Origin: a bacterium | GTDB lineage: Bacteria; Actinomycetota; Acidimicrobiia; Spongiisociales; Spongiisociaceae | Assembly (NCBI GenBank): GCA_028820935.1 | Contig: JAPPHZ010000029.1 | Location: forward strand, 151,437-215,436 | Reading direction: 5' to 3' | DNA: 64,000 nt | In this document: piece by piece, positions 2,220 to 64,000 of the stretch | Layout of the letters: the number at the start of each line of letters is the position of its first letter | Numbering within the stretch: position 1 is the first letter of the stretch | Position numbers and translations under genes: made by a program | The notes under the pieces: generated by a model | Told to the model about the DNA's origin: nothing | Database searches by the model: none | What the model saw: the letters and a program-made list of their open reading frames with translations, nothing else

Positions 2220-2229
2220 GACTTCCTCC

Positions 2230-6002: not shown

Positions 6003-6080
6003 GGGCCTCTCCTCTCGTGTACCCGGTGTGAATCGTAGCTGGTAGGTTGCCACGTTGAGAGTCAGGACGGGAGGGCTCGG

Positions 6081-26484: not shown

Positions 26485-26575
26485 CGGGAACTCTTAGCTT
26501 GGATGGTCAACGTTCGCACCGCTGCCACCCGGAATACTCGGAACGGGTGCATGCCCATCGACCTGGAGCACGCAC

Positions 26576-34072: not shown

Positions 34073-34164
34073 CCACCTCCGCGGCTCCCACCGGAGCGCC
34101 GGCTCCGAGCCCTTCTCATTATGGCGGACAGCGCGCCGGCGGACCCGTCCGGAACGGTCCGGTA

Positions 34165-35220: not shown

Positions 35221-35369
35221 GGGCACCTCCGACACGGCCATCGTCCGCGCCATCCTATCCGGGGGCGCTCCATCTATGCCGAGGACGATCCTGTCCCGTG
35301 GATCGGCGGGCCCGGACATCCGAGCCTCTCAACTCGCGGAGGGTGATGTGAACCCGATGACCGTCCTAG

Positions 35370-40777: not shown

Positions 40778-40855
40778 CTGGCCTGATAGTAGGTAATGAA
40801 GACCCAGTTCAGGGGATCACGCGCCAACCTATCCCCGTCTTTTTCAGCACCCTCC
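40755..40855. repeat. Intergenic element copy C2 at the hyuA-hyuB junction.
   Basis: In the minus-strand mRNA, the arms GGAGGGUGCUGAAAAAG and CAUUUUUCAGUACCCUCC pair over about 15 bp (one G-U wobble). The 3' arm encodes hyuB codons 2-8. hyuB has no evident Shine-Dalgarno sequence. Confidence 0.6.
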
Positions 40856-42885: not shown

Positions 42886-42895
42886 CCGCAGGAAC

Positions 42896-43564
42896 TCAGA
42901 CCGGCCAGGCCCTCTCGTTGTAGGCCATGTCCCAGAACATCTGCTCCAGGCGGCTGCTGGTGCGGAAGATGTCCTCGATCCTTGCCAGGTCCGAACTGCT
43001 CATGCCCTCGCAGAGTCGTTCGAGCTTGTCCTTGACCTCTTCGAGCGTGTCCCAGTACTCCTGCCCTCCGAAGAACTCGATCCAGGTGCGGTAGACCTGG
43101 TGATCCGGAGCATCGGCCAGCCGTTCCCTGCCGATCTCCCCGTAGCTCCAGGCGCAGGGTGTCAGCGAGGCCATGATGTCGGCGGCTCGACCCTCGTAGG
43201 CCACGGTCAGCAGGTGGCGGGTGTAGGCCAACGTCCCGGGCTCCATCACCACCTCTTCGGTCGCCCCCGGAACCATCTGGCGGACCTCGTCGAGCAGCTG
43301 GCGGTTCTTGGGTAGCTCGAAGTCGACGATGTTGCTCACGATGGCGGCGAAGTCCCGCATGGTGTCCTCATCATCGGCCTTCGCCACACCGAGGGCCATC
43401 GCCCTCGCCAGCTCCCTGAGGAAGACGATGTTCTGGCCGATGTAGAAGGCGAACTTCCGCTCCGGAAGGGTGCCGGCGGTCAGTTCATCCACGAACGGAT
43501 GGCTGTGCAGCTCGTGCCAGATGTCCCTGCAGCTGTCTCGGAGCTTTTCGCAAACGCTGCTCAT
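42896..43564 (-). CDS. tenA: TenA/THI-4/PqqC-family protein (second paralog).
   Basis: MSSVCEKLRDSCRDIWHELHSHPFVDELTAGTLPERKFAFYIGQN. Start trimmed to 43564 (ATGA overlap with the upstream stop). Confidence 0.75.
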   Translation of the reverse strand: MSSVCEKLRDSCRDIWHELHSHPFVDELTAGTLPERKFAFYIGQNIVFLRELARAMALGVAKADDEDTMRDFAAIVSNIVDFELPKNRQLLDEVRQMVPGATEEVVMEPGTLAYTRHLLTVAYEGRAADIMASLTPCAWSYGEIGRERLADAPDHQVYRTWIEFFGGQEYWDTLEEVKDKLERLCEGMSSSDLARIEDIFRTSSRLEQMFWDMAYNERAWPV

Positions 43565-46467: not shown

Positions 46468-47442
46468 CTACTTGCTACTGGGTCGGTGGTGGTGTAGTCG
46501 GTAGACGCGGCGGGTGTTCTCTCCGAGTATTTGGTCGATTTCGTGTTGGGGGATGCGGTAGCCCAGTTGTTTGGCCCATTCGGGGAGCATGCGGAATTGG
46601 TCTACCCATTGTTTGAGGGTTAGGGAGACTTCTATGCCGGCCATGTCGGAGCCGAAGAGGATGCGGTCGGGTCCGATGCGGTCTCTCATCCATACGATTT
46701 TGCGGACTAGTTCGTCGGGGGAGATCCAGTGTTGCCATAGGCTCATGTCGAGGTGGACGTTGGTTTTGTAGATGGCGACGGAGATGGCTTCATGCGCCCA
46801 GGTTTCGTAGCGGGCGGAGTGGCCGAGGATGAAGCGTAGGTCGGGGAAGTCGGCGGCGGCTGAGTCGACGTAGATGGGGTGTCCGTATTTTGATTTGTGT
46901 CGTCCTGCGGAGTGTCCTTGGTGGAGGAGTACGGGTAGGTCTCTTTCGAGGAGGAACCGGTAGAGGGGGTAGACGACGTTTTCGTCGTCGGGGTAGAAGC
47001 CGTTGGTGGGATACAGTTTGAGGCCTATGGCGCCCCATTGGTCTACTGCGGTGGTGAGTATTTCGAGGGCGTCGGGGCGTCGGGGGTCTACTCCGCAGAA
47101 GGTGTAGAGGCGTCCGGGGTGTCTTTTGGTGGCTTCGGCGCAGAGCCGGTTCTTTTCTGCGATGGGGATGACGCCTTCTTCGCCCAGGCCGACACCGTGG
47201 TCCATGGGCATCATCACCGACGCGTCGACCCCGGCCTCGTCCATGCGAGCAACCGCCTTATCACCCGTGATGTCCGTAGCCTCCGCAACCCTCGCATGCA
47301 GGTAGGAGGGATCCGACTTGGGCGGGTCGTACCAGCGCACCTGCCTCGCCCATGAGGCATCCATGCCGGACCTCAGGTTGACAGGGTTCCAATCATCACC
47401 CCGGATGTGCATGTGGCAATCCACCACGAGAGCCCCGCTCAT
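46468..47442 (-). CDS. Amidohydrolase-2 family hydrolase (copy A). The C-terminal 260 aa are encoded by an identical 783-bp block shared with copy B.
   Basis: VVDCHMHI motif. ATGA overlap with the upstream SDR stop. Confidence 0.75.
   Translation of the reverse strand: MSGALVVDCHMHIRGDDWNPVNLRSGMDASWARQVRWYDPPKSDPSYLHARVAEATDITGDKAVARMDEAGVDASVMMPMDHGVGLGEEGVIPIAEKNRLCAEATKRHPGRLYTFCGVDPRRPDALEILTTAVDQWGAIGLKLYPTNGFYPDDENVVYPLYRFLLERDLPVLLHQGHSAGRHKSKYGHPIYVDSAAADFPDLRFILGHSARYETWAHEAISVAIYKTNVHLDMSLWQHWISPDELVRKIVWMRDRIGPDRILFGSDMAGIEVSLTLKQWVDQFRMLPEWAKQLGYRIPQHEIDQILGENTRRVYRLHHHRPSSK
46483..47265. repeat. 783-bp block that is 100% identical to 49780..50562 (direct repeat, offset 3297 bp).
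   Basis: Line-by-line identity was checked at several points. The block has lower GC and A/T-ending codons. Confidence 0.85.
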
Positions 47443-48215
47443 GCTGTCCATCCACCGTCGACGAGGAGGTTCTGCCCGGTCAGGTAGGAACTCATACCCG
47501 ATACGAGGAACAGGGCCGCGCCGACCATCTCCTCCGGCCGGGCGATGCGTCCCATGGGCGTCCGCTGGAGGATGGCCGACACGTTGTCCTCGACGGCGAG
47601 ATAGTCACGGGTCATTTCGGTTCTCACCCAAGCAGGACTGATGCAGTTGAGCCGCACCTTGGGCGCCCAATGGTCGGCGAGCACGGCGCTCATGTGGATC
47701 ATGGCCGCCTTGCTCGCGCTGTAGGCGACCTGGGCGCCGTCGCTCACCACCCCTGACAGCGATGCAATGTTGACGATCGAGCCTCCATTCCCATCCAGCA
47801 TGCGGCGACCGACCTCCCTGGTCAGGAAGAAGGCGCCCCGGAGGTTCACGTCGAACAACGCATCCCATTCCGCCGGACTGATCTCCAGCGCGGAGGAGCG
47901 GTTCGTGGCCCCGGCGGAGTTGACCAGGCTGTCCAGCCCGCCCTTCCACCGCCACGCCGCCGCTACCGCCGCCGCCGTGGCCTCGAGATCGGCGATGTCC
48001 GCAACGAGCGGAAGAAACTCGCCCCCTCCGGCGCGTATCTCGTCCCCGAGATCGTCAAGGGCGTCGGCGGAGCGGGCCAGGCCCACCACAGAGGCGCCGG
48101 CCGCGGCCAGACCGATGGCTATGGATCGCCCGATTCCCCTGCTGGCGCCGGCCACCAGCGAGGTGGCCCCCGCTTGATCGGGCCGCAGGGTCTCGAATTG
48201 CCCCCAATCCGCCAC
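47439..48215 (-). CDS. SDR-family oxidoreductase.
   Basis: LVAGASRGIGRSIA glycine motif and a YxxxK region (YSASK). Confidence 0.85.
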   Translation of the reverse strand: MADWGQFETLRPDQAGATSLVAGASRGIGRSIAIGLAAAGASVVGLARSADALDDLGDEIRAGGGEFLPLVADIADLEATAAAVAAAWRWKGGLDSLVNSAGATNRSSALEISPAEWDALFDVNLRGAFFLTREVGRRMLDGNGGSIVNIASLSGVVSDGAQVAYSASKAAMIHMSAVLADHWAPKVRLNCISPAWVRTEMTRDYLAVEDNVSAILQRTPMGRIARPEEMVGAALFLVSGMSSYLTGQNLLVDGGWTA

Positions 48216-49764: not shown

Positions 49765-50733
49765 TCACCGTCCGCTGTTTCGGTGGTGGTGTAGTCGGTA
49801 GACGCGGCGGGTGTTCTCTCCGAGTATTTGGTCGATTTCGTGTTGGGGGATGCGGTAGCCCAGTTGTTTGGCCCATTCGGGGAGCATGCGGAATTGGTCT
49901 ACCCATTGTTTGAGGGTTAGGGAGACTTCTATGCCGGCCATGTCGGAGCCGAAGAGGATGCGGTCGGGTCCGATGCGGTCTCTCATCCATACGATTTTGC
50001 GGACTAGTTCGTCGGGGGAGATCCAGTGTTGCCATAGGCTCATGTCGAGGTGGACGTTGGTTTTGTAGATGGCGACGGAGATGGCTTCATGCGCCCAGGT
50101 TTCGTAGCGGGCGGAGTGGCCGAGGATGAAGCGTAGGTCGGGGAAGTCGGCGGCGGCTGAGTCGACGTAGATGGGGTGTCCGTATTTTGATTTGTGTCGT
50201 CCTGCGGAGTGTCCTTGGTGGAGGAGTACGGGTAGGTCTCTTTCGAGGAGGAACCGGTAGAGGGGGTAGACGACGTTTTCGTCGTCGGGGTAGAAGCCGT
50301 TGGTGGGATACAGTTTGAGGCCTATGGCGCCCCATTGGTCTACTGCGGTGGTGAGTATTTCGAGGGCGTCGGGGCGTCGGGGGTCTACTCCGCAGAAGGT
50401 GTAGAGGCGTCCGGGGTGTCTTTTGGTGGCTTCGGCGCAGAGCCGGTTCTTTTCTGCGATGGGGATGACGCCTTCTTCGCCCAGGCCGACACCGTGGTCC
50501 ATGGGCATCATCACCGACGCGTCGACCCCGGCCTCGTCCATGCGAGCAACCGCCTTATCACCGTTACCGTCGGCGGCCACACTCCAAGCCTTCGCGAAGT
50601 ACTCGGGGTCGGACTTGGGAGGGTCGTACCAGCGCACCTGCCTAGCCCAGGATTCGGCCATACCCGAGGACACGTTCATCGGGTTCCAATCGGGTTCCAT
50701 GATGTGCATATGGCAGTCCACCACCAAGGGCAT
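49765..50733 (-). CDS. Amidohydrolase-2 family hydrolase (copy B).
   Basis: MPLVVDCHMHI start with an AGAGGAG RBS upstream. The C-terminal 260 aa are identical to copy A. Confidence 0.75.
   Translation of the reverse strand: MPLVVDCHMHIMEPDWNPMNVSSGMAESWARQVRWYDPPKSDPEYFAKAWSVAADGNGDKAVARMDEAGVDASVMMPMDHGVGLGEEGVIPIAEKNRLCAEATKRHPGRLYTFCGVDPRRPDALEILTTAVDQWGAIGLKLYPTNGFYPDDENVVYPLYRFLLERDLPVLLHQGHSAGRHKSKYGHPIYVDSAAADFPDLRFILGHSARYETWAHEAISVAIYKTNVHLDMSLWQHWISPDELVRKIVWMRDRIGPDRILFGSDMAGIEVSLTLKQWVDQFRMLPEWAKQLGYRIPQHEIDQILGENTRRVYRLHHHRNSGR
49780..50562. repeat. Second copy of the identical 783-bp block.
   Basis: See 46483..47265. Confidence 0.85.
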
Positions 50734-50735
50734 GG

Positions 50736-52292
50736 TCACTCCTCTCTTGAACCGCTCCCCGTCAGGGGCGGATGCTTGGCGTTGTATACGGCCGCCGGCT
50801 CCAACGGTGTCCGGGCCCACGGGCGGTAGAAGTCGAGGACGTAGGGGTCCACCTCCCATCCCAGGCGCACCGACTCCGGGTCTGGGTCGCCTCCCATGAT
50901 GCGCGCAGCCGCTTCGGTGACGTAGTCATGCACCCGGCTGTGCGGAATGCGGGTGAACTCGCCGTCGTCGAACACGATCTCTCCGGCGACCATGACCGAG
51001 GCCACGTCGGCGGAAGAGGCTCGGTCGAGGATCACGTCCAGGGGCGGGGTGGACGCGTAGCGTTCCTCCGGCCAGAACAAGCGGTCGCGGCTCAATACGA
51101 CCAGGTCGGCTTCCTTGCCGACGCCGAGCGAGCCGAGTTCGGACTCGAAGCGGATCGCCCGGGCGCCGTTCTCCGCCGCGGCTCGCAGGACGGCTTCCGA
51201 ATCGAGGCGCCCGACCTCGAGCAATCCCGGCGTTCTCTGCAGGTAGGCGGCGAGGCGGAGCTCCTGCAAGAAGTCGCCGGAGTCGGAGAAGGAGATGTTG
51301 TCGGTGCCGAAGCACACCCGCCCGCCGCGGTCCATGATGTCCCTCACCCGCGCTATCCCGGTGCTGAGCCGGAGGTTGGAGCCGGGATTGTTGACGGCCA
51401 CCGCTCCCGTATCGGCGAGTATCGAGATGTCCTCGTCGGTCGCCCAGACGAAATGGGAACACGACACGTCGGGCCCCAGCACCCCGAGATCCGCCAGGCG
51501 GCGCATGGCGGTCTTGCCGTCGCTCTCCAGCGCGTACATCATCTCGGAGCGGGTCTCGAGCACGTGCGTCATGATCCCCGTTCCGAACTCATCGGCGAGG
51601 CGGCGGTTCCGGACGTAGAGCTCGTCCGAGCACGCCGGCGTCCAGTCCGGGGCGAGCAGTATCCGGATGCGGCCGTCCCGGTGATCCCACCGCGAGACCA
51701 GGTCCCGGTAGGTGGCGAACACCTCTCCGGTCGGCCACGCATAACCCATCGCCGATGCGCGCACGCGGGCAGCCAGATCCTCCGGGAGCATGGCGAGGAA
51801 CGACTCGTCGTCGGCGTGGACCAGGGTGTTCCGGTCCCTCGTCACCACACCGAGGGCCACCCGAACTCCGAGGTCCCGGTAGGCGGCCAGTATGGCGTCG
51901 TACCCGAAGTTGGGCAGACCGGACCGGCCGTAGTTGAGGTCGACGAACCCGGTCTGGCCTCCCCGCACGTCGTTCATGACGTTGGCCAGCACCGCGTGGT
52001 AGAGGTCCTCCTCGGTGACAGGGGTCCACATGCCATGCAAGTGGACGTTGGCCCGCTCGAAGATGTACTGGGCCATGCCCCTGCTCAGGGCCGAGCCCGA
52101 GTGATAATGACCGTTGATGAAGCCCGGAAGGACGGCATGGCGGGGCGATCCGACCCGCCGGTCGAAGGGACCGAGGCCCTCCAGATCGCGCCTCTTCCCG
52201 ATCCCTACGACGGTCCGATCCTCGACGACGAGCGCGCCGTCCCGGACATAACCCGGGGAAGCATCACCGAGGACGACGAGGGGATCTCCCAT
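50736..52292 (-). CDS. TRZ/ATZ-type amidohydrolase (paralog of 43561..45159).
   Basis: LPGFINGHYHSGS. Start trimmed to MGDPLVVLG (52292) by alignment to the paralog N-terminus. Confidence 0.7.
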   Translation of the reverse strand: MGDPLVVLGDASPGYVRDGALVVEDRTVVGIGKRRDLEGLGPFDRRVGSPRHAVLPGFINGHYHSGSALSRGMAQYIFERANVHLHGMWTPVTEEDLYHAVLANVMNDVRGGQTGFVDLNYGRSGLPNFGYDAILAAYRDLGVRVALGVVTRDRNTLVHADDESFLAMLPEDLAARVRASAMGYAWPTGEVFATYRDLVSRWDHRDGRIRILLAPDWTPACSDELYVRNRRLADEFGTGIMTHVLETRSEMMYALESDGKTAMRRLADLGVLGPDVSCSHFVWATDEDISILADTGAVAVNNPGSNLRLSTGIARVRDIMDRGGRVCFGTDNISFSDSGDFLQELRLAAYLQRTPGLLEVGRLDSEAVLRAAAENGARAIRFESELGSLGVGKEADLVVLSRDRLFWPEERYASTPPLDVILDRASSADVASVMVAGEIVFDDGEFTRIPHSRVHDYVTEAAARIMGGDPDPESVRLGWEVDPYVLDFYRPWARTPLEPAAVYNAKHPPLTGSGSREE

Positions 52293-52364
52293 CACCAGCG
52301 TCCGGCTCACCGTGGTCCTCCCACCCTGGTCCTCCTTGGGTGACCTGACCATAATGCCACCAGA

Positions 52365-53513
52365 GTGAGGTTGCTGGAACACGAGTCCAAGGCCCGCCTG
52401 GCCAGGGCCGGGGTGAGGGTTCCACGGGGCGCCGTCGCCACCACCCCGGAACAGGCCGGGTCTGCCGCGCCGGCTCTGGGCCGCGAGGTCTTCGTCAAGG
52501 CGTTGGTCCCGGCGAACCGGCGGTCGAAGAACAACGGCGTGATCGGCCCCATCGGGCCGGACGGCGTGGCGCGAGCGGCGCATGAGCTGCTCGCCTCCCG
52601 GATCCTGGGCCATCGGTGCCGGTCGGTATACGTGGAGGAGGCTGTCGCCGTGGCCGGAGAGCTCTATGCCGCCTTCTCGTGGAGTCCTCGCGGCCCCAGG
52701 GCCACCGCATCCGCCGCAGGAGGTGTGGACATCGAGAACTCGGGCGGTGCGATGGTCCATCTTGACCTGGAGGGGTTGGCGGACCTACCCCGAGGCGGGG
52801 CGGAGCGTCTCTGGGGGCGGGCGCTGGGCGACTCCCGGGTCCCGACTGCGCTGGTCGACCTGACCGTGTCCGCAGCCGGCGTCTTCTTCGACGACGCGCT
52901 GCTGGTGGAGCTGAACCCGCTGGCCAGGTCGGCCGACGGGTCGTTCACCGCAGTCGGCGCGCTGATCGAAATGGACGGCAGCGCCCTCTTCAGGCATCCG
53001 GAACTCCGATGGCGTCCCGACGGACTCAGCGAGCGGGAGGCCGTCGTGGCAGAGGCCGACCGCCGGCTTCCGGGCGCCTCGGTACGTTACGTGGAGCTCG
53101 ACGGTGATACGGGGCTGCTGGTGGGCGGCGGCGGCGCCGGGCTGTACCAGCACGATCTGCTGGTCCGAGCGGGGGTGCGACCGGCCAACCACAGCGACCT
53201 GGGCGCCGGGGTATCGGCCGAGAAGCTGGACGTGCTGATCGGGGCCGTGCTCGGCCACCCGAACCTCTCGCGCCTGCTGGTCAGCTTCAACATCCTCCAG
53301 CTGGCCCCGTGCGACCTCATCATGGAGAGACTCCTGGCGGGCCTGGACAGGATGCGAGGCCGGGACGGCCCGATCCCGGTGGTGGTCCGGCTCGAGGGCC
53401 TCAACGCCGAGCGGGCCCGGAGGCTGGCGGCAGGACGCGCCGGTTTGCGGTACCTTCCCTCCGGAGCGAGCCTGGGAGAGGCCGTGGACACCCTGGTCAG
53501 GATCAGCCGGTGA
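52365..53513 (+). CDS. Succinyl-CoA synthetase beta-subunit-like ADP-forming CoA ligase (ATP-grasp plus ligase-CoA domain).
   Basis: LLEHESKARLARAG, LVELNPLARSADGSFTAVGALIEMDGSALFRHPEL and VVVRLEGLNAERARRLA align with SucC. Confidence 0.75.
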   Translation: MRLLEHESKARLARAGVRVPRGAVATTPEQAGSAAPALGREVFVKALVPANRRSKNNGVIGPIGPDGVARAAHELLASRILGHRCRSVYVEEAVAVAGELYAAFSWSPRGPRATASAAGGVDIENSGGAMVHLDLEGLADLPRGGAERLWGRALGDSRVPTALVDLTVSAAGVFFDDALLVELNPLARSADGSFTAVGALIEMDGSALFRHPELRWRPDGLSEREAVVAEADRRLPGASVRYVELDGDTGLLVGGGGAGLYQHDLLVRAGVRPANHSDLGAGVSAEKLDVLIGAVLGHPNLSRLLVSFNILQLAPCDLIMERLLAGLDRMRGRDGPIPVVVRLEGLNAERARRLAAGRAGLRYLPSGASLGEAVDTLVRISR

Positions 53514-53728
53514 TCGTCCGAGCCGACATGGCGTCGATCGTCTGGCGGATAACCGTCGGCGAAGGCGAACGGGTGCGAGCCGGGCAGGAGCTCCTCATCC
53601 TCGAGTCGATGAAGATGGAGATGCCCGTCCTCGCTCCGGTGGCCGGGATGGTGGCCGATATCCCGGTGGCTGAGGGCGACGTCATCGAGGCCGGTGACGA
53701 GCTGGTGCGGATCGAACGCAGCCGGTGA
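53510..53728 (+). CDS. Small biotinyl-domain carrier protein (BCCP / 1.3S-like, about 72 aa).
   Basis: ITVGEGERVRAGQELLILESMKMEMPVLAPVAGMVADIPVAEGDVIEAGDELVRIE: a biotin-attachment MKM hammerhead. GTGA overlaps at both ends. Confidence 0.7.
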   Translation: MIVRADMASIVWRITVGEGERVRAGQELLILESMKMEMPVLAPVAGMVADIPVAEGDVIEAGDELVRIERSR

Positions 53729-54621
53729 GCATCCTGGTCGACGAGCGGACCCGGATCCTGGTCCAGGGCATAACCGGCTCCGTAGGCCGGGTGGATACCC
53801 GGCTATGCCTCGACTACGGATCCCGGATCGTGGCCGGCGTCACGCCCGGACGGGGTGGGGAATCGGTCTCGGGGGTTCCGGTCTTCGATACGGTGGCCGA
53901 AGCAGTCGAGCGGACCGGGGCCACCGCGGCGGTTCAGTACGTGCCGGCCCGCCATGCGGCCGACGCGGTGGTGGAGGCGGCCGCATCCGGCCTGTCGCCG
54001 ATCGTGGCCATTGCGGAGAACCTGCCCCGGCATGATGCCTGGCGGGCCGCCGTGGCCGCCAGGGGCGCCGGTTCGGTCCTGATCGGGTTCAATACCAACG
54101 GCATCATCTCACCGGGAAGGACGAAGCTGGGGGGTATCGGCGGGCCGAGGCCCGACGACCTGTTCCGCGCCGGAACCGTGGGTGTCTGCTCCCGGTCGGG
54201 GGGAATGTCCGCCGAGATCGCCCGCTCGCTGGCCAGGGCCGGCAGCGGCGTCTCGACCTGCGTCTCGATGGGAGGGGAGTCGATCACCGGAAGAACCATG
54301 GCCGAGTACGCCCGCTGGTTCGAGGCGGACGAAGCCACCCGCAGCATCGTGGTCTTCGGAGAGCCGGGATCGGAGCATGAGGCACTGCTGGCCGCGGCCA
54401 TGGAGCGCGGCGAGGTCACCAAACCGGTCGTGGCGATGATCGTGGGCCAGTTCCAGGATGCCTACCCGGCCGGATCCTCGTTCGGCCATCTATCGGCGAT
54501 GGTGCGGCTCGAGACCGACCGTGCGGTGGTGAAGCGTGACATGCTGGCCGCTGCCGGAGCGCTTATAGCGGAGCGCGTCGAGGACATCCCCGACCTGATT
54601 ACCGTCATGGATGCGGGATGA
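53725..54621 (+). CDS. Succinyl-CoA synthetase alpha-subunit-like CoA-binding protein.
   Basis: MSILVDERTRILVQGITGSVG...GVTPGRGG...PVFDTVAEAV...VCSRSGGMS...FGH aligns along the full length with SucD. Confidence 0.75.
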   Translation: MSILVDERTRILVQGITGSVGRVDTRLCLDYGSRIVAGVTPGRGGESVSGVPVFDTVAEAVERTGATAAVQYVPARHAADAVVEAAASGLSPIVAIAENLPRHDAWRAAVAARGAGSVLIGFNTNGIISPGRTKLGGIGGPRPDDLFRAGTVGVCSRSGGMSAEIARSLARAGSGVSTCVSMGGESITGRTMAEYARWFEADEATRSIVVFGEPGSEHEALLAAAMERGEVTKPVVAMIVGQFQDAYPAGSSFGHLSAMVRLETDRAVVKRDMLAAAGALIAERVEDIPDLITVMDAG

Positions 54622-56174
54622 TCTGGGACCCAGAACTCGAGGAGATGGAGCGCCGGAAGGCGTTCGCGCTCTCGATGGGCGGGGACGAGGCCGTGGCGCG
54701 CCAGCACGACGCCGGCCGGCTCACCGCCAGGGACAGGATCGCTCTCCTGCTCGACGAGGGCACCTGGCAGGAGATCGGGACCTACACCGGTGCGGCCACC
54801 TATGACGCGGAGGGCCGGCTCGTCAGCGTGAAGCCGGCCAACACCATCATCGGAACAGGCCGGGTCCGCGGCCGTCGGGTGGCCGTCGAAGCCGACGATT
54901 ACACGATCAGGGGAGGCTCGACGGAAGCGCAGATCTCGGAGAAGTGGGAGTTCATCAACCGGTACGCGCTGGAGATGCGGATGCCGATGATCCGTCTCGT
55001 GGAGAACGTCGGGGGAAGTGTCCGCCTGCTCGAGAAGATGGGGCGGACCAAGATCCCCGGATACCGCATGTGGCCCCTCGCCGGGATGCTCGGCTACGTG
55101 CCCGTAGTGGCCTTGGTGCTGGGTCCGTCAGCGGGTCTCGGTCCTATGAAGGCCGCCAGCAGCCACTTCTCGGTGATGGTCCGCGGTACCAGCCAGGTGT
55201 TCGCCGCCGGCCCTCCGGTGGCGCGGGTCGCCCTGGGCAGGGACATCGACAAGGAGGAGCTGGGAGGCGCCCACATCCACACCGAGCAGAGCGGAGTGAT
55301 CGACAACGCGGCCGACTCGGAGGAGGAGGCGATCTGCCTGGCGCGCCGGTTCCTGTCCTACCTTCCGCAGAGCGTGTTCGAGATGCCTCTCCACCGCCCG
55401 TCCGACGATGCGCCCGACCGCGCCGAGGAGGAGTTGGCTTCGATCATCCCGCGTAACCAGCGCCGGGTCTACGACTCGCGGAGGCTCCTGGCGCTGGTCT
55501 TCGACCGTGGCACGCTCTTCGAGATCGCGCCGGCCTACGGTCCCTCATCTATCACGATGCTGGCCCGCCTCAACGGTTACCCGGTTGGGGTGATCGCCAA
55601 CGATCCCTACCGGTTCGGGGGCGGTCTGACCCGCGCCGCCGCCGAGAAGGTCGAGACGTTCGTGGATCTGTGCGACACCTTCCACGTTCCGATCGTGAAC
55701 TTCGTGGACCAGCCCGGCACCGTGATCGGGCTGGAAGCCGAGCGCGAAGGAGCTGTGCGGGGGACCATCCGCCTCATCTCCGCCATCGAGCAGTCGAGGG
55801 TTCCGTGGTGCGGCATGATCGTGCGGCGGCTCTTCGGTCTGGCGGGCACCAGCTACGGCCGGCTGCAGGGGCTGAACCTTCACTATGCCTGGCCGTCTGC
55901 CCGGTGGGGTTCGATCCCGATCCAGGGAGGGGTGAGAGCCGCCTTCCGCCGGGAACTCGACGCCCTGCCCCCCGACGAGGCGGCGGAAAGGCTGGCACGG
56001 CTGGAGGAGCAATACGACGGGCTGTCGTCACCCTTCCGGACGGCGGAGGCCTTCGGGGTTCCGGAGATCATCGATCCCCGCCGGACCAGACCCGTCCTGT
56101 GCCAGTGGATCGAGGACGCCTATGCCGTGCTCCCCGAGCAACTGGGGCCGACAGCCCGTACCATGCGCAGGTAG
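54618..56174 (+). CDS. Acyl-CoA carboxylase carboxyltransferase subunit (PccB/AccD-like; methylmalonyl-CoA decarboxylase alpha-like).
   Basis: Carboxyl-transferase-domain architecture. 518 aa. ATGA overlap with the upstream gene. Confidence 0.75.
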   Translation: MIWDPELEEMERRKAFALSMGGDEAVARQHDAGRLTARDRIALLLDEGTWQEIGTYTGAATYDAEGRLVSVKPANTIIGTGRVRGRRVAVEADDYTIRGGSTEAQISEKWEFINRYALEMRMPMIRLVENVGGSVRLLEKMGRTKIPGYRMWPLAGMLGYVPVVALVLGPSAGLGPMKAASSHFSVMVRGTSQVFAAGPPVARVALGRDIDKEELGGAHIHTEQSGVIDNAADSEEEAICLARRFLSYLPQSVFEMPLHRPSDDAPDRAEEELASIIPRNQRRVYDSRRLLALVFDRGTLFEIAPAYGPSSITMLARLNGYPVGVIANDPYRFGGGLTRAAAEKVETFVDLCDTFHVPIVNFVDQPGTVIGLEAEREGAVRGTIRLISAIEQSRVPWCGMIVRRLFGLAGTSYGRLQGLNLHYAWPSARWGSIPIQGGVRAAFRRELDALPPDEAAERLARLEEQYDGLSSPFRTAEAFGVPEIIDPRRTRPVLCQWIEDAYAVLPEQLGPTARTMRR

Positions 56175-56261: not shown

Positions 56262-57611
56262 GTGTCTGATCGGATCATCATCGAGAACGCTGCCATCGTG
56301 ACGATGAACGAAGAGGACGATGTGATCTTCGACGGGTCGATGGTCATCGAGGGCAACCGGATCGTCGCCGTCGGGGGCTCGGAGGCGGTGTCCGGATACG
56401 ACCGCGCCGGTGCGAAGGTCATCGACGCCGGCGGGAAGGCGGCCCTACCGGGGTTCGTCGACCTCCACTACCACACCGCCATAGGTAAGGGATACTGCGA
56501 CCATCTGGATCTGTGGGAGATCCTGCAGGCGTTCTGGTATCCGATGATCCGGGCCCTCAATCCCGAAGAGGCCTACTGGGCGGCCATGGCCAGCTACAGC
56601 GAGTCGTTGAAGGCCGGCGTCACCACCGCCAACGACATGTTCCGCCAACTCCCGGCCCTGGCGCGGGCGGCGGTCGACAGCGGGATCCGGGTGGTTCTCT
56701 CCAACGACATAGCCGACCCGGAGCACGATCTCGACCTGATCGAGGACAACGAGTCGGCCTACCACGAGTGCCACGGGATGGGCGACGGGCGGGTGGAGGT
56801 CTACGTGGGTATCGAGTGGCTACCCCTCGCCTCCGAGCAACTGCTGGTGGACTGCCGGGCGCTGGCCGACCAGTTGGGGACCGGTATCCACATCCACCTG
56901 AACGAGTCCCTCGGCGAGGTCGAGATATCTAAGCAGGCCTTCGGCGGGCGTCGGCCCACCGAGGTGGCTTACGACACCGGGATCCTGGGACCTGATTGCG
57001 TGGCCGCCCACTGCGTGCATCTGTCGGACCGGGAGATCGGGCTCATGAGCGAGACAGGAACCCACATCTCCCACAATCCCACCTCCAACGCCAAGCTCGG
57101 CAACGGTATCGCCCGGCTGCCCGAGATTCTGGAGGCGGGGATCAATGTCGGTCTGGGCCATGACTCGGCGGAAGGAACCAACAGCTGCGACCTGTTCCAG
57201 GTGATGAAGTGGGCGTCGCTGGTGCATCGGGCCGAGCGCAAGGACGCCACGATCCTTCAGGCGCCAACCATCCTGCGAATGGCGACCAGGAACGGCGCGC
57301 GTGCCCTAGGCCACGAGACGGGCGAGTTGAGCGTCGGGAAGGTGGCGGACGTGATCCTGGTCAACCTCCAGAACCACCATTTCACTCCTTTCGTGCCGGG
57401 TAACAAGATCCATCTCATGTCACATCTGGTCTACAGCGCGGAGAGCGCCGCGGTCGACACCACCATCGTGGACGGCACGATCGTGATGGAAGGGCGCGAG
57501 TTCGTGGCCTTCGACGAGGAGGAAGTGCTGGCGAAGGCGACCGAGAGCTTCTTCACCTGCACCGACCGGATGGAGGTCCCCGAGGAATACGCCGGGCTTC
57601 TCGACCGCTAG
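56262..57611 (+). CDS. TRZ/ATZ-type amidohydrolase (third paralog).
   Basis: PGFVDLHYHTA HxH motif. GTG start with a GAGGAG RBS upstream. Confidence 0.75.
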   Translation: MSDRIIIENAAIVTMNEEDDVIFDGSMVIEGNRIVAVGGSEAVSGYDRAGAKVIDAGGKAALPGFVDLHYHTAIGKGYCDHLDLWEILQAFWYPMIRALNPEEAYWAAMASYSESLKAGVTTANDMFRQLPALARAAVDSGIRVVLSNDIADPEHDLDLIEDNESAYHECHGMGDGRVEVYVGIEWLPLASEQLLVDCRALADQLGTGIHIHLNESLGEVEISKQAFGGRRPTEVAYDTGILGPDCVAAHCVHLSDREIGLMSETGTHISHNPTSNAKLGNGIARLPEILEAGINVGLGHDSAEGTNSCDLFQVMKWASLVHRAERKDATILQAPTILRMATRNGARALGHETGELSVGKVADVILVNLQNHHFTPFVPGNKIHLMSHLVYSAESAAVDTTIVDGTIVMEGREFVAFDEEEVLAKATESFFTCTDRMEVPEEYAGLLDR

Positions 57612-57683: not shown

Positions 57684-58115
57684 CTAGCTATCTCGCGTCT
57701 CCACGAGTTCTACGAGCAGGCCGTCGAACTCGCGGGGATGGACGAATGCGATCATGGTGCCCATCCCGCCGGGGCGGGGCTGCTCGTCGATGAGTTGAAC
57801 GCCCAGGCTGCGGAGCCGCCGGAGATACTCCCCGATGTCCTGCACCTCGAAGGCGATGTGGTGTAGGGCCGAGCCACGCTTGTCCACGAACTTGCCGACC
57901 ACCCCGGGTCCGGTCGCCTCGAGGGTCTGGACGAAGCCGTCCCCGACAGGGAGCATCCTCTCGGTGAATCCCGGTCCGCCCTCCTCGTGGCAGACCGGGA
58001 CGCCCAGCAACTCGGCGAACCGGTCGTGCGGCGCGGACGTAGGGGTATGCGCGAAGGCGACGTGGTGGATCCTGAGCGGGGGTGGCCACGCGGGAGGGAT
58101 CGGTTCCTGGACCAT
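57684..58115 (-). CDS. Methylmalonyl-CoA epimerase-like VOC-family protein.
   Basis: ALHHIAFEVQDIGEYLRRLRSLGVQLIDEQPRPGGMGTMIAFVHPREFDGLLVELVE closely matches the MCE C-terminal half. TAATG overlap with the upstream LLM stop. Confidence 0.7.
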   Translation of the reverse strand: MVQEPIPPAWPPPLRIHHVAFAHTPTSAPHDRFAELLGVPVCHEEGGPGFTERMLPVGDGFVQTLEATGPGVVGKFVDKRGSALHHIAFEVQDIGEYLRRLRSLGVQLIDEQPRPGGMGTMIAFVHPREFDGLLVELVETRDS

Positions 58116-59102: not shown

Positions 59103-60191
59103 TCATCCTGCCTTCCTGTCGTACCGGACGATGGTATCGGCCAGGGCTGCGAGCCCGGTTCCGATCGGTTCGGTCTCAATCCATTCCCCGGGGGTGTGCT
59201 CGCCGGATCCGAAGGTGATGCCGATAGTGACCGCCGGGATCCCCGCCGCGTAGGCGGCGTTGGCGTCGGTACTGGCTGCGACGTGTTCCGGATCGATCCC
59301 GACGGCGGCCAGGGCGGCGTCGGCGGCCGCCACCAGAGGATGCGTCTCCGCGATCGATCCCGCAGGTCGCTTGCCCAGTTCCTTGCAGGTGGTCGCCAGT
59401 TGTGTTTCGGAGTCCACCACGCGGCGCGCCGCGGAATCGAGATCGACGAGGACCGTCGGGTCGGCGGACCGGATGTCGACCCGAAGGGCGGCGCGGCGGG
59501 CGCGGGCGTTGATCGACTCGCCGCCCTCGATGTGTCCTACGTTGAGGGAACACCGCGCCCGGCTCCTGGCGCCCGGTAGCAGGCGTTCCAGACCCACGAT
59601 GATCCTCGCCAGGTCGTGGATGGCGCTGGGAGCGTCGGCGGCCTCCCAGGAGTGCCCTCCCGGACCCTCGAGCTCGACCAGGTGGCGGACCGATCCGACA
59701 CCGACGGTCACCACCCGTCCGAGGTAGTTGCCCTCCAGGGCGATGAGAGCGCCCATCCCGGCGGGAGGATGCTCCACTAGGTGGAGCGCTCCGGCGAGGT
59801 TGCCCAGGCCCTCCTCGGCGGTGGTGGCCGCTATCCACACCGGCCGCGACAGGTCCTTCGGAAGGAGGCGGTCGAGCAGGGACAGGGCTGCGACGGCCAC
59901 GGTGTTATCACCGACCCCGACGCCATAGAGCCGGCCGCCCCGCTGCTCGGTTCCATGGGGGATGTCCCGGCCGAAGACCGTGTCGAGGTGGGCGGCTACG
60001 AACGTTGCCGGACCTTCGCCCATCCGGAGCCGGGCGACAACGTTCCCCACCCCGTCAACCCGCGGTCGCAGCCCGTCCGCGCGCCACCATCCGGCCACGA
60101 CCTCCGCCCGGTCGGCCTCGTCGAGGGGAGGCGCCGGGACCGCCGCCAACTCGACGGTACGCGCTAGCACGACCGCAGCTGCATCGGTCAT
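59103..60191 (-). CDS. M20-family metallopeptidase / deacylase.
   Basis: FVAAHLDTV and GVGDNTVAVA M20 motifs. Start trimmed to MTDAAAVV (ATGA overlap with the upstream stop). Confidence 0.7.
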   Translation of the reverse strand: MTDAAAVVLARTVELAAVPAPPLDEADRAEVVAGWWRADGLRPRVDGVGNVVARLRMGEGPATFVAAHLDTVFGRDIPHGTEQRGGRLYGVGVGDNTVAVAALSLLDRLLPKDLSRPVWIAATTAEEGLGNLAGALHLVEHPPAGMGALIALEGNYLGRVVTVGVGSVRHLVELEGPGGHSWEAADAPSAIHDLARIIVGLERLLPGARSRARCSLNVGHIEGGESINARARRAALRVDIRSADPTVLVDLDSAARRVVDSETQLATTCKELGKRPAGSIAETHPLVAAADAALAAVGIDPEHVAASTDANAAYAAGIPAVTIGITFGSGEHTPGEWIETEPIGTGLAALADTIVRYDRKAG

Positions 60192-61396
60192 CCCGGCTCG
60201 GCCGCTATCCCGCCTGCGATGAGGGCATCGACGTCGGCCGGCTCCATTCCGGCCTGGAGGAGCGAATCCCGCGTGTGCTGGCCGAGGAGGGGCGCAGGCC
60301 CGGGGATCGGCAGGGGTTCGCGGTCGATCCGGAGCGGCAGGCCGATCGCAGGGTAGGCGCCCGCCAAGTCGTGCACCAGCGTCTGGACCGAGCCGAGCGC
60401 CCGCGCCTGGGACCCGTCCAGCACTCCGCCGATGTCGTTGATGCGGTCCGCGGGCACCTGAGCTTCTGCGAACAGGGCCAGCCACTCCGCGACGTCCTTC
60501 CGGGTGGTGATCGACTCGATCTCGGCGGTCAGTTCATCACGAGCCGCCACCCGGGAGGCGTTGTCGGCGAAGCGGGGGTCTTCTAGCAGGTGCGCGGCAC
60601 CGAGCGTCTCGCAGAAGCGGCGCCACAGCGCCTCCGATCCGGCGCCGGCTGCCACGAAGTGTCCGTCGCGGGCACGGAATGCTCCGTAGGGAGCGAAGGT
60701 GGGGGAGTGGCTGCCCAGCAGGCCCGGCAGCTCGCCGTTCACGAGGTACGCCGTCGCAACCGTGGCCAGCGCGGCCAGCGAGAACTCGAGCAGCGACGTG
60801 GAGACCTGGCGCCCGCGGCCGGTTCGTTCCCGTTCCGCCAGCGCGGCGAGCACCCCGACGACGCAGGCGAGACCGGCGCCGATGTCGGTGACCGGGACCC
60901 CGATCTTGGCGGGGCCGGTGGATTGATGGCCGGTGACGCTCATCAGGCCGCCGGACGCCTGGAGAATGAGATCGAACCCACCCTTCCCGGCGTCGGGACC
61001 CACGTCCCCGAAGCCGGAGACCGACCCGTAGACGAGGGAGGGGAAACGGGCGTGGACAGATGGGTAGTCGAGCCCGTACTTGGCGAGGCTGCCCGGCCGT
61101 CCGTTCTCCAGCAGGACATCCGCGGAGGCCAGCAGCGCATCCATGGCGGGCCGGGCATCCTCCGCCCGGAAGTCGAGAGCGATGCTCTTCTTGGCGCTGT
61201 TGAGGGTCATGAACAGCACCGACTCGTCCCCCACGCGTGCCGTTCCCTGGTTCCGGTAGGGGTCGCCCCCGGACGGGCCCTCGATCTTGAGAACCTCCGC
61301 GCCCAGGGTCGCCAGGATGAAGGAGGCGTACGCCCCCGAGACGAATCTGGTCAGGTCCACCACCCGGAGACCGTCCAGCATGCCCCCTCCGCTCAC
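60188..61396 (-). CDS. CoA-transferase family III protein (CaiB/BaiF/Frc-like).
   Basis: LDGLRVVDLTRFVSGAYASFILATLGAEVLKIE N-terminal signature. 402 aa. Confidence 0.8.
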   Translation of the reverse strand: MSGGGMLDGLRVVDLTRFVSGAYASFILATLGAEVLKIEGPSGGDPYRNQGTARVGDESVLFMTLNSAKKSIALDFRAEDARPAMDALLASADVLLENGRPGSLAKYGLDYPSVHARFPSLVYGSVSGFGDVGPDAGKGGFDLILQASGGLMSVTGHQSTGPAKIGVPVTDIGAGLACVVGVLAALAERERTGRGRQVSTSLLEFSLAALATVATAYLVNGELPGLLGSHSPTFAPYGAFRARDGHFVAAGAGSEALWRRFCETLGAAHLLEDPRFADNASRVAARDELTAEIESITTRKDVAEWLALFAEAQVPADRINDIGGVLDGSQARALGSVQTLVHDLAGAYPAIGLPLRIDREPLPIPGPAPLLGQHTRDSLLQAGMEPADVDALIAGGIAAEPG

Positions 61397-62985
61397 CAGG
61401 GGCTCGGTTCCCGGAACTCGCCGAACTCGTCCCGCATCACGTCGCTCATCTCACCCAGCGTCACTCCGCCCCGCGCGCAGTCCAAGATCGGGGGCATGAC
61501 GTTGGTTCCATTGCGCAGAGCCTTCCGCAGGGCCGCGAGCGTCGCCGCGGCCGCCGGCTCGTCCCGGGCGGCCTTTCTCCGTTCCGTCCGAGCGATCTGG
61601 AGATCCCCGATCTCGGGATCCAGCGTGAACAGGCGGGGCTCGTGCTGTGTCTGCGAGTCGTCCACGTAACGGTTCACGCCCACCCGTACCCTGGATCCGT
61701 CGGCGATCTCCCTCTCCGTCCGGTAGGCCTCCGCCGCTATCCACCGTTGGGGTGTTCCCGACTCCAGTGCCTTGACCGCTCCTCCCAGTTGCTCGACGGC
61801 CGTCATGACCTCGCGGGCGCGGCGCTCCACCTCGTCGGTGAGAGACTCGACGTAATAGGAACCCGCCAAGGCGTCGACCGTATCGGCGACACCGGACTCG
61901 TGCGCCACGATCTGCTGCGTCCGCAGGGAGAGCGTGACGGCCTCCTCGGTGGGTAGTTCGTAGGCCTCGTCATAGCCCATCACGTGTATGGACTGGGCGC
62001 CCCCCAGCACCGCGCCCAGGCATTGGATGGTCGAGCGGATGATGTTGTTGAGAGGCTGCGCGGCGGTGAGAGTGGTACCCGAGTTCCCGGAGAAGAAGCG
62101 AAGCCGTGCCGAGCGGGGGTCCGTGGCGCCGAAGCGGATGGTGGCCGTGTCGTGCCAGAGTCGCCGGGCCGCCCTCAGCTTGGCGACTTCCTCGAACAGG
62201 TTCATGGTGGTGGCGAAGTGGAACGAGAACCGGGGCGCGAAGGAGTCGAACGGGAGTCCTCGGGCCTGCAGTTCCTCGGCGTAGGCGATGGCGGATGACA
62301 TGGTCAGGCCCAGTTCCTGGACGGCATTGCAACCGGCCTCCCTGGCGTGATACCCGGTCACGGAGATCGGGTTGAAGCGGGGCAGGTGTTCGGACGACCA
62401 TTCGACGATGTCCGCCACCAGGCGCATGGACGCTGCCGGTGGAAAGATGAATGCCTTGCGGGCCAGGAACTCCTTGAGCAGGTCGTTCTGGAGCGTTCCC
62501 GACAGGTCCGCATAGGATGCGCCCTGGCGCTCGGCCGTCACCAGGTAGAAGGCCAGGATGATCGGCGCCGTGGCGTTGATGGTGAAGTTCACCGAGAGCT
62601 TGTCGAGGGGCAGACCTTCGAACAACCCCGCCATGTCGTCGGCGGTGTCGATGGCCACTCCCACCCGGCCGACCTCGGCGCGGGCCATGGGATGCGAGGA
62701 GTCGTAGCCGAGTTGGGTCGGGAGGTCGAAGGCGACCGAGAGCGCGGTCTGGCCCTGTTCCAGCAGGAAGCGGAAGCGATCGTTGGCGTCCTCGGCGCTG
62801 CCGTAGCCGGCGAACTGGCGCATCGTCCAGAGGCGCCCCCGGTACATCGTCTCGTACGGCCCCCTGGTGAAGGGCGGGTGGCCCGGGAGCCCCAGATGTT
62901 CACCGGGCCGGAATCCCTCCAGATCGTCCTGCGTGTAGACGGGAGCGACCGGGATGCCCGAGTCGGTACGGCGCTCGCCTGTCAT
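61393..62985 (-). CDS. Acyl-CoA mutase large (substrate-binding TIM-barrel) subunit, methylmalonyl-/isobutyryl-CoA mutase family, split type.
   Basis: GHPPFTRGPYETMYRGRLWTMRQFAGYGSAEDANDRFRFLLEQGQTALSVAFDLPTQ, a classical mutase motif run. 530 aa with no B12 domain. Confidence 0.85.
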   Translation of the reverse strand: MTGERRTDSGIPVAPVYTQDDLEGFRPGEHLGLPGHPPFTRGPYETMYRGRLWTMRQFAGYGSAEDANDRFRFLLEQGQTALSVAFDLPTQLGYDSSHPMARAEVGRVGVAIDTADDMAGLFEGLPLDKLSVNFTINATAPIILAFYLVTAERQGASYADLSGTLQNDLLKEFLARKAFIFPPAASMRLVADIVEWSSEHLPRFNPISVTGYHAREAGCNAVQELGLTMSSAIAYAEELQARGLPFDSFAPRFSFHFATTMNLFEEVAKLRAARRLWHDTATIRFGATDPRSARLRFFSGNSGTTLTAAQPLNNIIRSTIQCLGAVLGGAQSIHVMGYDEAYELPTEEAVTLSLRTQQIVAHESGVADTVDALAGSYYVESLTDEVERRAREVMTAVEQLGGAVKALESGTPQRWIAAEAYRTEREIADGSRVRVGVNRYVDDSQTQHEPRLFTLDPEIGDLQIARTERRKAARDEPAAAATLAALRKALRNGTNVMPPILDCARGGVTLGEMSDVMRDEFGEFREPSPW

Positions 62986-63386
62986 GGCGCGACGGCGGCG
63001 GAGGCCTCGCGGAATATCCCGTCCACCACCTCATCCAGGGGGGATCCGACCGGGAAGACCCGGGAGATCCCGATCTCCCTCAGGGCGTCGGCGTCGGCCT
63101 CGGGAATGGTCCCGCCGATGACGATCGGGACATCAGCAAAGCCGGCCTTGCCTCGTTCCTCCACCAGCTGGCGGCCTAGAGCGAGGTGGGCTCCGGAGAG
63201 CACCGAGATGCCGATTACGTCGGCGCTCTCCTCGATCGCCGCGGTGATAATCCGCTCCGGTGATTGCCGGAGGCCGAGAAAGATCACCTCGGCGCCGGCA
63301 TCCCGGAGGGCCATCGCGATGACCTTCACGCCGCGGTCGTGGCCGTCGAGACCGGGCTTGGCCAGGAGGATCCGGGGCCGGCTCAT
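62982..63386 (-). CDS. Cobalamin (B12)-binding small subunit of the split acyl-CoA mutase.
   Basis: ILLAKPGLDGHDRGVKV (DxHxxG B12 motif). Start trimmed to MSRPRILLAK. ATGA overlaps on both sides. Confidence 0.8.
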   Translation of the reverse strand: MSRPRILLAKPGLDGHDRGVKVIAMALRDAGAEVIFLGLRQSPERIITAAIEESADVIGISVLSGAHLALGRQLVEERGKAGFADVPIVIGGTIPEADADALREIGISRVFPVGSPLDEVVDGIFREASAAVAP

Positions 63387-64000
63387 CCCGGCAACTCTCC
63401 ATCGCTGATCACCACCTCGCCGTCGATCTCGAGTGTGGCGGCGGCCATCACGCAGTCCAGATGGGCGGTTGCGTCGACCGTCCCCCCGTAGGCGATGGAG
63501 TTGCCGAGGGCAATGTGGGCCGTCCCCAGCGCCGACTCGGTCTCCATGGGGACCCCGCAAATGGTTCCCAGCGGGTTGAGACCCATGGACACCTCGGCCA
63601 GGTTGCTCATCCGGTCGTCGTCACAGCGGGCGATCATCTCGAGGAGCCGGTTCCTGTGGGTGCCGTCGGTGCCCACCATCCGTCCGTTCTCGAAGTGCAT
63701 CACGACCGGCTCGGGGAGGGGTCCCCTGCCCATGAAGAGCAGGTCACCGTCGATCACGGCGGTTCCCGAGGTGGTCTCCTCGACCGGCGCGGTGCCGGCC
63801 TCGATGTCGGGCGGCGCCATGTACTGGCCGTCGGCCCTGGCTATCCCGTCCAGCACCCGCCCGGCCCGGTTCTCGATCGAGCCTTGCAGATCGGTCCCGG
63901 CAGGGCTGGTGAGCCTGAACCCGGAACCGCGGTCCCAAGCGGTTCCCACCTTGACGGCGACGGCGCGCTGGGAGTCGAAGTCGACCGTTAGGGGGCCACC
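63383..64000 (-). CDS. Possible M29-type aminopeptidase-like protein, C-terminal part (5'-partial; the frame is open to the window end).
   Basis: GTAHIALGNSIAYGGTVDATAHLDCV resembles the aminopeptidase T/S C-terminus. No stop in frame up to 64000. Confidence 0.35.
   Translation of the reverse strand, partial: GGPLTVDFDSQRAVAVKVGTAWDRGSGFRLTSPAGTDLQGSIENRAGRVLDGIARADGQYMAPPDIEAGTAPVEETTSGTAVIDGDLLFMGRGPLPEPVVMHFENGRMVGTDGTHRNRLLEMIARCDDDRMSNLAEVSMGLNPLGTICGVPMETESALGTAHIALGNSIAYGGTVDATAHLDCVMAAATLEIDGEVVISDGELPG

Follow-up and report, generated by a model that had tools for sequence, protein, structure and literature searches.

An operon pairing a SucCD-like ligase with a predicted biotin carrier and a carboxyltransferase in sponge-associated Acidimicrobiia

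In Mycobacterium tuberculosis, three alpha subunits containing biotin carboxylase (BC) and six beta subunits, which are carboxyltransferases (CTs), occur alongside a stand-alone putative biotin carboxyl carrier protein (BCCP), Rv3221c (PMC3048393). Here we describe a four-gene operon at positions 52365-56174 of a 64,000-nucleotide stretch of Acidimicrobiia DNA (contig JAPPHZ010000029.1; hereafter the window, to which positions refer), which encodes a SucC-like ligase subunit, a predicted biotin carrier, a SucD-like ligase subunit and a CT. Like the actinobacterial carboxylases and Rv3221c/TB7.3, the operon has a CT that is encoded away from BC-alpha and a stand-alone carrier (about 71 aa in the mycobacterial case; PMC3048393). 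It differs from these shared-alpha carboxylases in that the carrier is embedded in, and coupled to, a ligase operon, and that no epsilon or alpha subunit is encoded nearby. We favour, with roughly even confidence, the reading that the operon supplies the ligase and, for an acyl-CoA carboxylase that depends on BC, the CT and carrier; the BC itself would be encoded elsewhere in the genome.

Three other groups of described systems are close enough for comparison. The archaeal-type multi-subunit acetyl/propionyl-CoA carboxylases, to which the Sulfolobus tokodaii CT structure 1x0u belongs, share with the window operon a single-chain CT of about 520 aa of the PccB superfamily and a small free carrier, and share with its proteobacterial orthologues a stand-alone BC of about 455 aa. 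The window operon differs from them in having no BC in cis, a carrier of 72 aa without an N-terminal extension, an altered CT pocket and a dedicated SucCD-like ligase. The Na+-translocating methylmalonyl-CoA, glutaconyl-CoA and malonate decarboxylases and transcarboxylase also combine a CT of this superfamily with a small carrier and no BC in the operon. In contrast to these, the window and its syntenic loci have no membrane beta or 5S subunit, the scores on decarboxylase models were low (CT, 300 bits on the MmdA model TIGR01117, cut-off 999; carrier, 36 bits on the MmdC model NF047903, cut-off 200), and the orthologues pair with BC. On the ligase side, succinyl-CoA synthetase (SCS), malate thiokinase, citryl-CoA synthetase and ACLY have the same two subunits, with an ATP-grasp_2 beta fold and a CoA-binding alpha subunit bearing a catalytic histidine loop, whereas the window beta subunit shares only about 28-34% identity with true SucC and has an altered loop at the FGGIxRCD position, and all equivalog cut-offs are missed. 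SucC and SucD are as a rule encoded by separate genes, and we know of no member of the SCS superfamily with a biotin carrier gene between the subunit genes. Our literature search turned up no account of either a SucCD-like/BCCP/CT operon or the proteobacterial cluster reported below.

Four coupled genes and their protein families

The window has a G+C content of about 66%, and the four open reading frames (ORFs) of the interval, all on the plus strand, showed a strong third-position GC bias. They encode the SucC-like beta subunit (52365..53513, 382 aa, GTG start), the stand-alone biotin carboxyl carrier (53510..53728, 72 aa, with a GTG start overlapping the stop of the sucC-like gene), the SucD-like alpha subunit (53725..54621, 298 aa, GTG start) and the single-chain CT (54618..56174, 518 aa, ATG start). 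Read from the sequence, the junctions are cgGTGAtc between the SucC-like and carrier genes (53510-53513), ccGGTGAgc between the carrier and SucD-like genes (53725-53728) and ggATGAtc between the SucD-like and CT genes (54618-54621). These three 4-nt overlaps (GTGA, GTGA and ATGA) confirm the tight four-gene coupling claimed in the initial annotation of this DNA. Its further description, of a CoA ligase split around a carrier, holds in that the carrier gene lies between those of the ligase; "split" does not apply, since the two subunits ordinarily have their own genes. Scans of the window for promoters, terminators and Rfam families returned nothing informative.

Both ligase proteins belong to the SucCD/ACLY superfamily. 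The SucC-like protein matched Pfam ATP-grasp_2 (2.9e-19), and the SucD-like protein matched CoA_binding (6e-22) together with Succ_CoA_lig and Ligase_CoA, which gives an ATP-grasp beta subunit and an alpha subunit with a CoA-binding Rossmann domain and the catalytic His loop. Both fell below every equivalog cut-off in NCBIfam: the SucC-like protein reached 163 bits on the SucC model NF001913 (cut-off 370) and stayed far under the malate-thiokinase cut-off, and the SucD-like protein reached 251 bits on the SCS alpha model NF004230 (cut-off 336). In a tree, the SucC-like protein fell in a clade separate from true SucC. Its AF2 model (pLDDT 86.5) superposed full length on SCS beta chains with TM 0.73-0.80, and the top 50 structure matches were all SCS, CCS or ACLY, with BC in none of the 50. 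The family alignment showed that the ATP-grasp residues K45, E99, N184-P185 and D204 are invariant, and that FNxLQ(L/M)A(P/R)CD stands where true SucC has its conserved FGGI(V/L)RCD loop.

Over its whole length, the SucD-like protein could be aligned to SCS alpha subunits of archaea and bacteria; the archaeal 2yv1 scored 216 bits, and every motif fell into register. GxTGxxG, TPGRGG, SRSGG, GGD/E, GEPG and FGH were kept in 60 of 60 family loci, among which the carrier-linked clade showed no special divergence. Because every CoA-binding and phosphohistidine motif is retained, the SucD-like protein looks like that of a true ADP-forming CoA ligase, and by these sequence features the predicted SucCD-like pair looks like a real ADP-forming, phosphohistidine-type acid-CoA ligase of a distinct family. 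The ligase probably acts on a substrate other than succinate, to judge from the divergence of its sequence, and probably activates a small carboxylic acid, of dicarboxylic type. The initial annotation had allowed that the pair might be the housekeeping succinyl-CoA synthetase (SucCD); this candidate was rejected on the scores under the cut-offs and the distinct clade.

The carrier matched Pfam Biotin_lipoyl PF00364 (1.2e-17) and, over residues 3-67 of 72, the NCBIfam model NF004547 'biotin/lipoyl-binding carrier protein' (78.3 bits, above the cut-off of 75), which we take to be built around the Rv3221c/TB7.3 class of carrier. Lys35 in the motif ESMKME is the predicted biotinylation site, and E32-S-M-K-M-E37 was invariant among nine carrier orthologues. 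These matches agree with the initial annotation of the 72-aa MKM protein as a putative biotinyl-type carrier. A lipoyl or unmodified (BADC-like) carrier was rejected on the invariant MKM motif.

Results for the CT showed the two-domain, crotonase-like Carboxyl_trans fold (Pfam PF01039, 2.2e-87, residues 28-496) and a full-length alignment to PccB and 1x0u, with the GG oxyanion pair of the N-domain kept. Its best matches in the PDB were 1x0u (275 bits) and PccB structures (about 270 bits). At about 270 bits it was equidistant from the PccB-type subunits of Sulfolobus, Streptomyces, Methylorubrum and Thermotoga, and so nearer the alpha-carbon carboxylases (PccB/AccD5 type) than the MCC/GCC type (160-180 bits); the transcarboxylase 12S subunit 1on3 (244 bits) was one of many matches. 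In the pocket, the CT has FGLAGTSY where Streptomyces PccB has FGGAYDVM, and the substrate pocket therefore differs; the residue aligned to the PccB specificity residue, presumably D422 in PccB numbering, is Thr. CT orthologues 58-68% identical were found in both cultured and uncultured Alpha- and Betaproteobacteria, including cultured Ruegeria pomeroyi strains and Oceanibacterium hippocampi, and form a widespread, tightly conserved family. PccB proper was rejected, the CT being a distinct orthologous family with a different pocket. Thus the earlier label of a PccB-like CT is right as to the superfamily and too close as to kinship, given the bit scores to PccB structures.

Proteobacterial clusters and conservation in sponge-associated Acidimicrobiia

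The proteobacterial CT orthologues sit in a recurrent cluster (Ruegeria, Oceanibacterium, Lautropia and others) that contains a GntR/FCD regulator, a stand-alone carrier of 73-74 aa, a CT of 518 aa and a stand-alone canonical BC of 452-476 aa, together with a TRAP transporter, a lactonase-type enzyme (Amidohydro_2 fuconolactonase type, or SGL) and a CoA-activating enzyme. Often a second CT of 511 aa is present, divergently transcribed and 32% identical to the 518-aa CT. The window carrier is 46-48% identical to the carriers of these clusters, and in Lautropia the carrier gene lies directly beside BC. The initial annotation had argued that no known partner could charge the carrier; this inference finds no support, given that the orthologous CT and carrier cluster with a canonical BC.

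The enzyme for CoA activation varies: it is an AMP-forming ligase in Ruegeria, a family III CoA-transferase in Oceanibacterium and a SucCD-like pair in Lautropia (L001+L035) and in locus L076. This looks like non-orthologous displacement of one step. The Lautropia operon has the order carrier-BC-SDR-SucC-like-SucD-like, and these closest relatives of the window ligase (47% and 61% identical) thus share one operon with BC and carrier. The occurrence of the same SucCD-like family in the BC-containing clusters of Lautropia and L076 leaves the earlier inference of an undescribed soluble route unsupported. Database searches showed that the stand-alone cluster-BC family is large, and in at least nine cases a BC and a CT match lie on contigs of equal length, which we take to be shared contigs; cultured Inquilinus was among the matches to the cluster's stand-alone BC. 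In Ruegeria pomeroyi, only some strains carry the CT, BC and lactonase, and the DSS-3 accession was not among the matches, so that published DSS-3 fitness and expression data are unusable for function. The loci of the proteobacterial cluster are L034, L035+L001, L036, L076, L042, L043 and L018, and at one proteobacterial locus an ECF biotin transporter (BioY) adjoins the cluster.

A second subfamily of the ligase, 38-44% identical, occurs without biotin genes and is typically preceded by two MaoC hot-dog genes. The arrangement suggests a module of ligase and MaoC enoyl-CoA hydratase for an unsaturated or hydroxy dicarboxylate. The neighbour clustering behind this used stop-to-stop ORFs, many of them spurious in high-GC DNA, and the MaoC pair was its only usable signal. 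MaoC enzymes use CoA esters, and the association of other family members with MaoC genes supports the CoA-ligase role. Loci of this subfamily are L003 (9097-12093) and about 30 others in Proteobacteria.

Relatives of the whole operon were collected by a one-genome-per-species scan, a metagenome scan and contig look-ups. In the one-genome-per-species scan, the closest relatives were found only in metagenome-assembled genomes (MAGs) of marine-sponge Acidimicrobiia ('Ca. Spongiisociaceae' and relatives). The neighbourhood survey suggested in the initial annotation found the order SucC-like, carrier, SucD-like, CT in 13 further loci, with 70-93% SucC-like identity where measured, and most of these loci have the same start/stop overlaps. 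At L074 the four-gene set sits among housekeeping genes, and therefore the four genes move as a unit. All carrier-containing loci formed one clade in a neighbour-joining tree, and the insertion of the carrier between the ligase genes is therefore a single event. The most divergent member, L016 (Acidimicrobiales MAG JASMKJ010000369.1), retains at 3278-3526 a decayed carrier remnant of 56 codons (…AILVNEVKTPTLPPVDG…) in which MKM is lost; both ligase genes around it are intact, and the contig ends ahead of any CT. Because the carrier has decayed there between intact SucC-like and SucD-like genes, L016 suggests that the ligase is not dependent on the carrier.

Charging of the carrier and the proposed route

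Pfam scans covered 44 of the 48 long ORFs or genes considered in the window (all but four long ORFs at 272-3258 and 6039-6842) and found no Biotin_carb_N, CPSase_L_D2, HMGL-like, PYC_OADA or OAD_beta domain in these 44; a phmmer search with a genuine BC against all six-frame window ORFs of at least 50 aa gave no match. Within that scope, the initial statement that the 64-kb window lacks genes for BC, a 5S subunit and a Na+-pump subunit is upheld. A membrane carboxybiotin decarboxylase (beta subunit) was absent from the window Pfam scans and from the annotated neighbours of related loci, and no syntenic locus had a 5S or pump subunit.

We place BC in trans because the orthologous CT and carrier cluster with a canonical BC and because supply in trans is usual in Actinobacteria. 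The Acidimicrobiia operon is the proteobacterial system with the BC gene gone from the neighbourhood and the carrier gene moved between the ligase genes. In the proposed mechanism, the ligase would convert an acid, ATP and CoA to an acyl-CoA through His~P and an acyl phosphate, and the trans-encoded BC, either stand-alone or contained as a domain in a housekeeping AccA-type alpha subunit, would charge the carrier biotin with ATP and bicarbonate. The CT would transfer CO2 to the alpha-carbon of the acyl-CoA to give a 2-substituted malonyl-CoA, and an epimerase-like protein, a split B12 mutase and a CoA-transferase, encoded just downstream, would then process the malonyl-type product towards succinyl-CoA. 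This product, and its epimerisation and rearrangement, are suggested because the CT groups with alpha-carbon carboxylases, glyoxalase-fold genes recur, and the mutase and CoA-transferase genes are adjacent; an epimerase-like gene lies in or beside the operon in most relatives, in support of this scheme. Because activating enzymes are interchangeable in Proteobacteria, we favour by analogy that the ligase activates the incoming acid rather than harvesting the final thioester. We infer in this way the activating role of the ligase, the supply of BC in trans, the reaction direction and the link to the epimerase and mutase.

Several observations weigh against this favoured reading. BC was lacking within 10 kb in 15 Acidimicrobiia loci as well as in the window, and when a profile of three cluster BCs was searched against the protein database, the best 120 matches (at least 777 bits) were all proteobacterial stand-alone BCs, and among these 120 no contig agreed in length with an Acidimicrobiia contig. 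There would be no need for a separate carrier if this CT were served by a housekeeping alpha subunit that brings a BCCP domain of its own. In one organism (L005/L038) the SucC-like/carrier/SucD-like trio is intact, with the gene for the CT (81% identical) some 44 kb distant on that contig and following genes for an AMP-forming ligase and a glyoxalase-fold protein. Since the carrier gene keeps its place between the ligase genes despite this distance, its linkage to the ligase is closer than its linkage to the CT. An AMP-forming ligase is also present in the same operon in L039 and L037/L038, where a second activating enzyme looks redundant.

The same BC-in-trans carboxylase might instead use the SucCD-like pair as a terminal, ATP-yielding step, which would turn succinyl-CoA or a close analogue into free acid and ATP after an acyl-CoA has passed through carboxylation, epimerase and B12 mutase to thioester cleavage, activation being left to an AMP-forming ligase or the family III CoA-transferase. 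The epimerase-like, MCM-type mutase and CoA-transferase genes adjoining the operon would fit this, as would the AMP-forming ligase ahead of the operon in L039 and ahead of the CT in L037/L038; moreover, the characterised SucCD-family enzymes (SCS, malate thiokinase, citryl-CoA synthetase and ACLY) to our knowledge all act reversibly on di- or tricarboxylates. Yet the low identity of the beta subunit to true SucC and its altered FGGI(V/L)RCD loop argue against succinate, the mutase genes are convergent with the operon rather than co-oriented, and the proteobacterial clusters that carry the ligase have no mutase nearby, which leaves a terminal role unlikely. Mere chance juxtaposition, of a housekeeping synthetase beside an unrelated PccB and a stray carrier, is barely credible: all four proteins do come from very common superfamilies, but the 4-nt overlaps, an order kept in 13 further loci even where the measured SucC-like identity falls to 70%, the recurrence of the ligase family with the same carboxylase system in Proteobacteria, and SCS and PccB/MmdA scores far under the cut-offs speak against it, and the synteny already contradicts it.

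It is also conceivable, and in our judgement rather unlikely, that the carrier works without a canonical BC, either with the SucCD-like pair charging biotin via carboxyphosphate or with ligase, carrier and CT as a self-contained soluble decarboxylase/transcarboxylase for a malonate-type acid. Both ideas stay alive because the placement of the carrier between the ligase genes is invariant and no BC was found in cis in 15 loci; taken together, such BC-independent schemes hold a small share of our confidence. In the decarboxylase/transcarboxylase version, the ligase would make a malonyl-type CoA ester and the CT would pass its carboxyl group to the carrier, which would be discharged without BC, pump or 5S subunit. 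All three being absent from the window and all syntenic loci, the four genes travelling as a self-contained unit into another context at L074, and a mutase and epimerase that could supply (S)-methylmalonyl-CoA from succinyl-CoA are consistent with this scheme. We nevertheless consider it improbable, since the CT and carrier orthologues cluster with canonical BC, both proteins score low on the MmdA and MmdC models, carboxybiotin is slow to lose its CO2 without a catalyst and no energy would be conserved in the process, and we know of no soluble biotin decarboxylase without a carboxybiotin-decarboxylating subunit. If the SucCD-like pair itself acted as the BC, the phosphoryl group of His~P would pass to bicarbonate to give carboxyphosphate, and the holo-carrier would replace CoA as acceptor, a chemistry that would be formally analogous to that of BC. 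The carrier gene is coupled between the ligase genes throughout the clade, even with the CT 44 kb off, BC is consistently absent in cis, and some loci have other potential activators (AMP-forming ligase or CoA-transferase). Set against these are the closest ligase relatives (Lautropia type, L076), which coexist with BC and so are no BC substitute there, the CoA-binding motifs fully kept in the carrier-linked clade, and the decayed carrier between intact ligase genes in L016; with no precedent known to us for biotin carboxylation by a SucCD-like enzyme, this role seems very improbable.

The carboxylase family, which occurs in sponge symbionts and in Alpha- and Betaproteobacteria of sea and soil, would add a new catabolic carboxylation to a set of biotin enzymes that is small and well mapped. 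The Acidimicrobiia version is the likeliest to show physical coupling of ligase and carboxylase, since translation couples the carrier to the ligase subunits. For the sponge symbionts, it is a conserved module in amidohydrolase-rich catabolic islands, and it probably channels an acid from the host or from seawater into the methylmalonyl/succinyl-CoA pathway. If BC were truly missing from these genomes, this would point to a new way to make or use carboxybiotin, and charging by the SucCD-like pair, if true, would mean that biotin carboxylation has been solved a second time by an unrelated enzyme.

Neighbouring genes in the window

A possible fifth gene of the operon follows the CT after an 87-nt gap (56262..57611, plus strand) and encodes an ATZ/TRZ-type amidohydrolase (Amidohydro_1, 1.9e-61), which stayed under the cut-off of all NCBIfam chlorohydrolase/deaminase models. 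Of the 13 syntenic loci, 10 have such an amidohydrolase gene after the CT gene. Another ATZ/TRZ-type amidohydrolase gene (50736..52301, minus strand; Amidohydro_1, 1.4e-42) diverges from the operon 63 nt upstream and is syntenic in L006-L014 and L075.

Convergent with the operon, on the minus strand, are genes for a glyoxalase-fold, methylmalonyl-CoA-epimerase-like protein (57684..58115; Glyoxalase_4, 3e-11), a family III CoA-transferase (60188..61396; CoA_transf_3, 7e-114), the large (substrate) subunit of a B12-dependent acyl-CoA mutase of MCM type (61393..62985; MM_CoA_mutase, 1.8e-196; TIGR00641, 645 bits against a cut-off of 304) and a B12-binding mutase small subunit (62982..63560; B12-binding, 1.2e-25; TIGR00640, 141 against 57). 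The domain models thus bear out the epimerase-like, split B12 mutase and CoA-transferase genes noted in the initial annotation, with the epimerase-like protein below the cut-off of TIGR03081 (90.5 bits; cut-off 115). The best NCBIfam model for the CoA-transferase was succinate--glutarate CoA-transferase (280 bits; cut-off 750). The start codon of the small mutase subunit is uncertain, and its domain covers residues 60-186 of the ORF. The DNA between these convergent downstream genes also encodes an F420-type luciferase-like oxidoreductase and an M20 hydrolase.

In most relatives, a second glyoxalase-fold gene, whose product is about 31% identical to the window epimerase-like protein, is co-oriented with the operon and lies directly upstream of the SucC-like gene (L009-L011, L015 and L039) or upstream of the CT gene (L037/L038). 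An AMP-forming ligase gene precedes it in some of them, before the SucC-like gene in L039 and before the CT gene in L037/L038. Upstream of the window operon there is neither a second glyoxalase-fold gene nor an AMP-forming ligase gene.

Further upstream, a near-exact direct repeat of about 780 nt (46485-47265 and 49782-50562, spacing 3297) lies within two Amidohydro_2 paralogues (46471-47475 and 49765-50859) that are 90% identical in amino acid sequence, with the C-terminal approximately 270 aa identical, and that flank SDR and amidase genes. The repeat is a recent duplication, gene conversion or an assembly artefact. Positions 1-47000 of the window form a catabolic island unusually rich in C-N bond hydrolases, with three ATZ/TRZ amidohydrolases, six Amidohydro_2 proteins, an ATP-dependent hydantoinase pair HyuA/HyuB (39128-42999), a creatininase (25693-26493) and an N,N-dimethylformamidase beta-subunit-like protein (32486-34330). 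The same region also encodes a phosphotriesterase-family protein (34165-35328), a xanthine-dehydrogenase-type molybdoenzyme (8316-10790) and several F420/LLM oxidoreductases.

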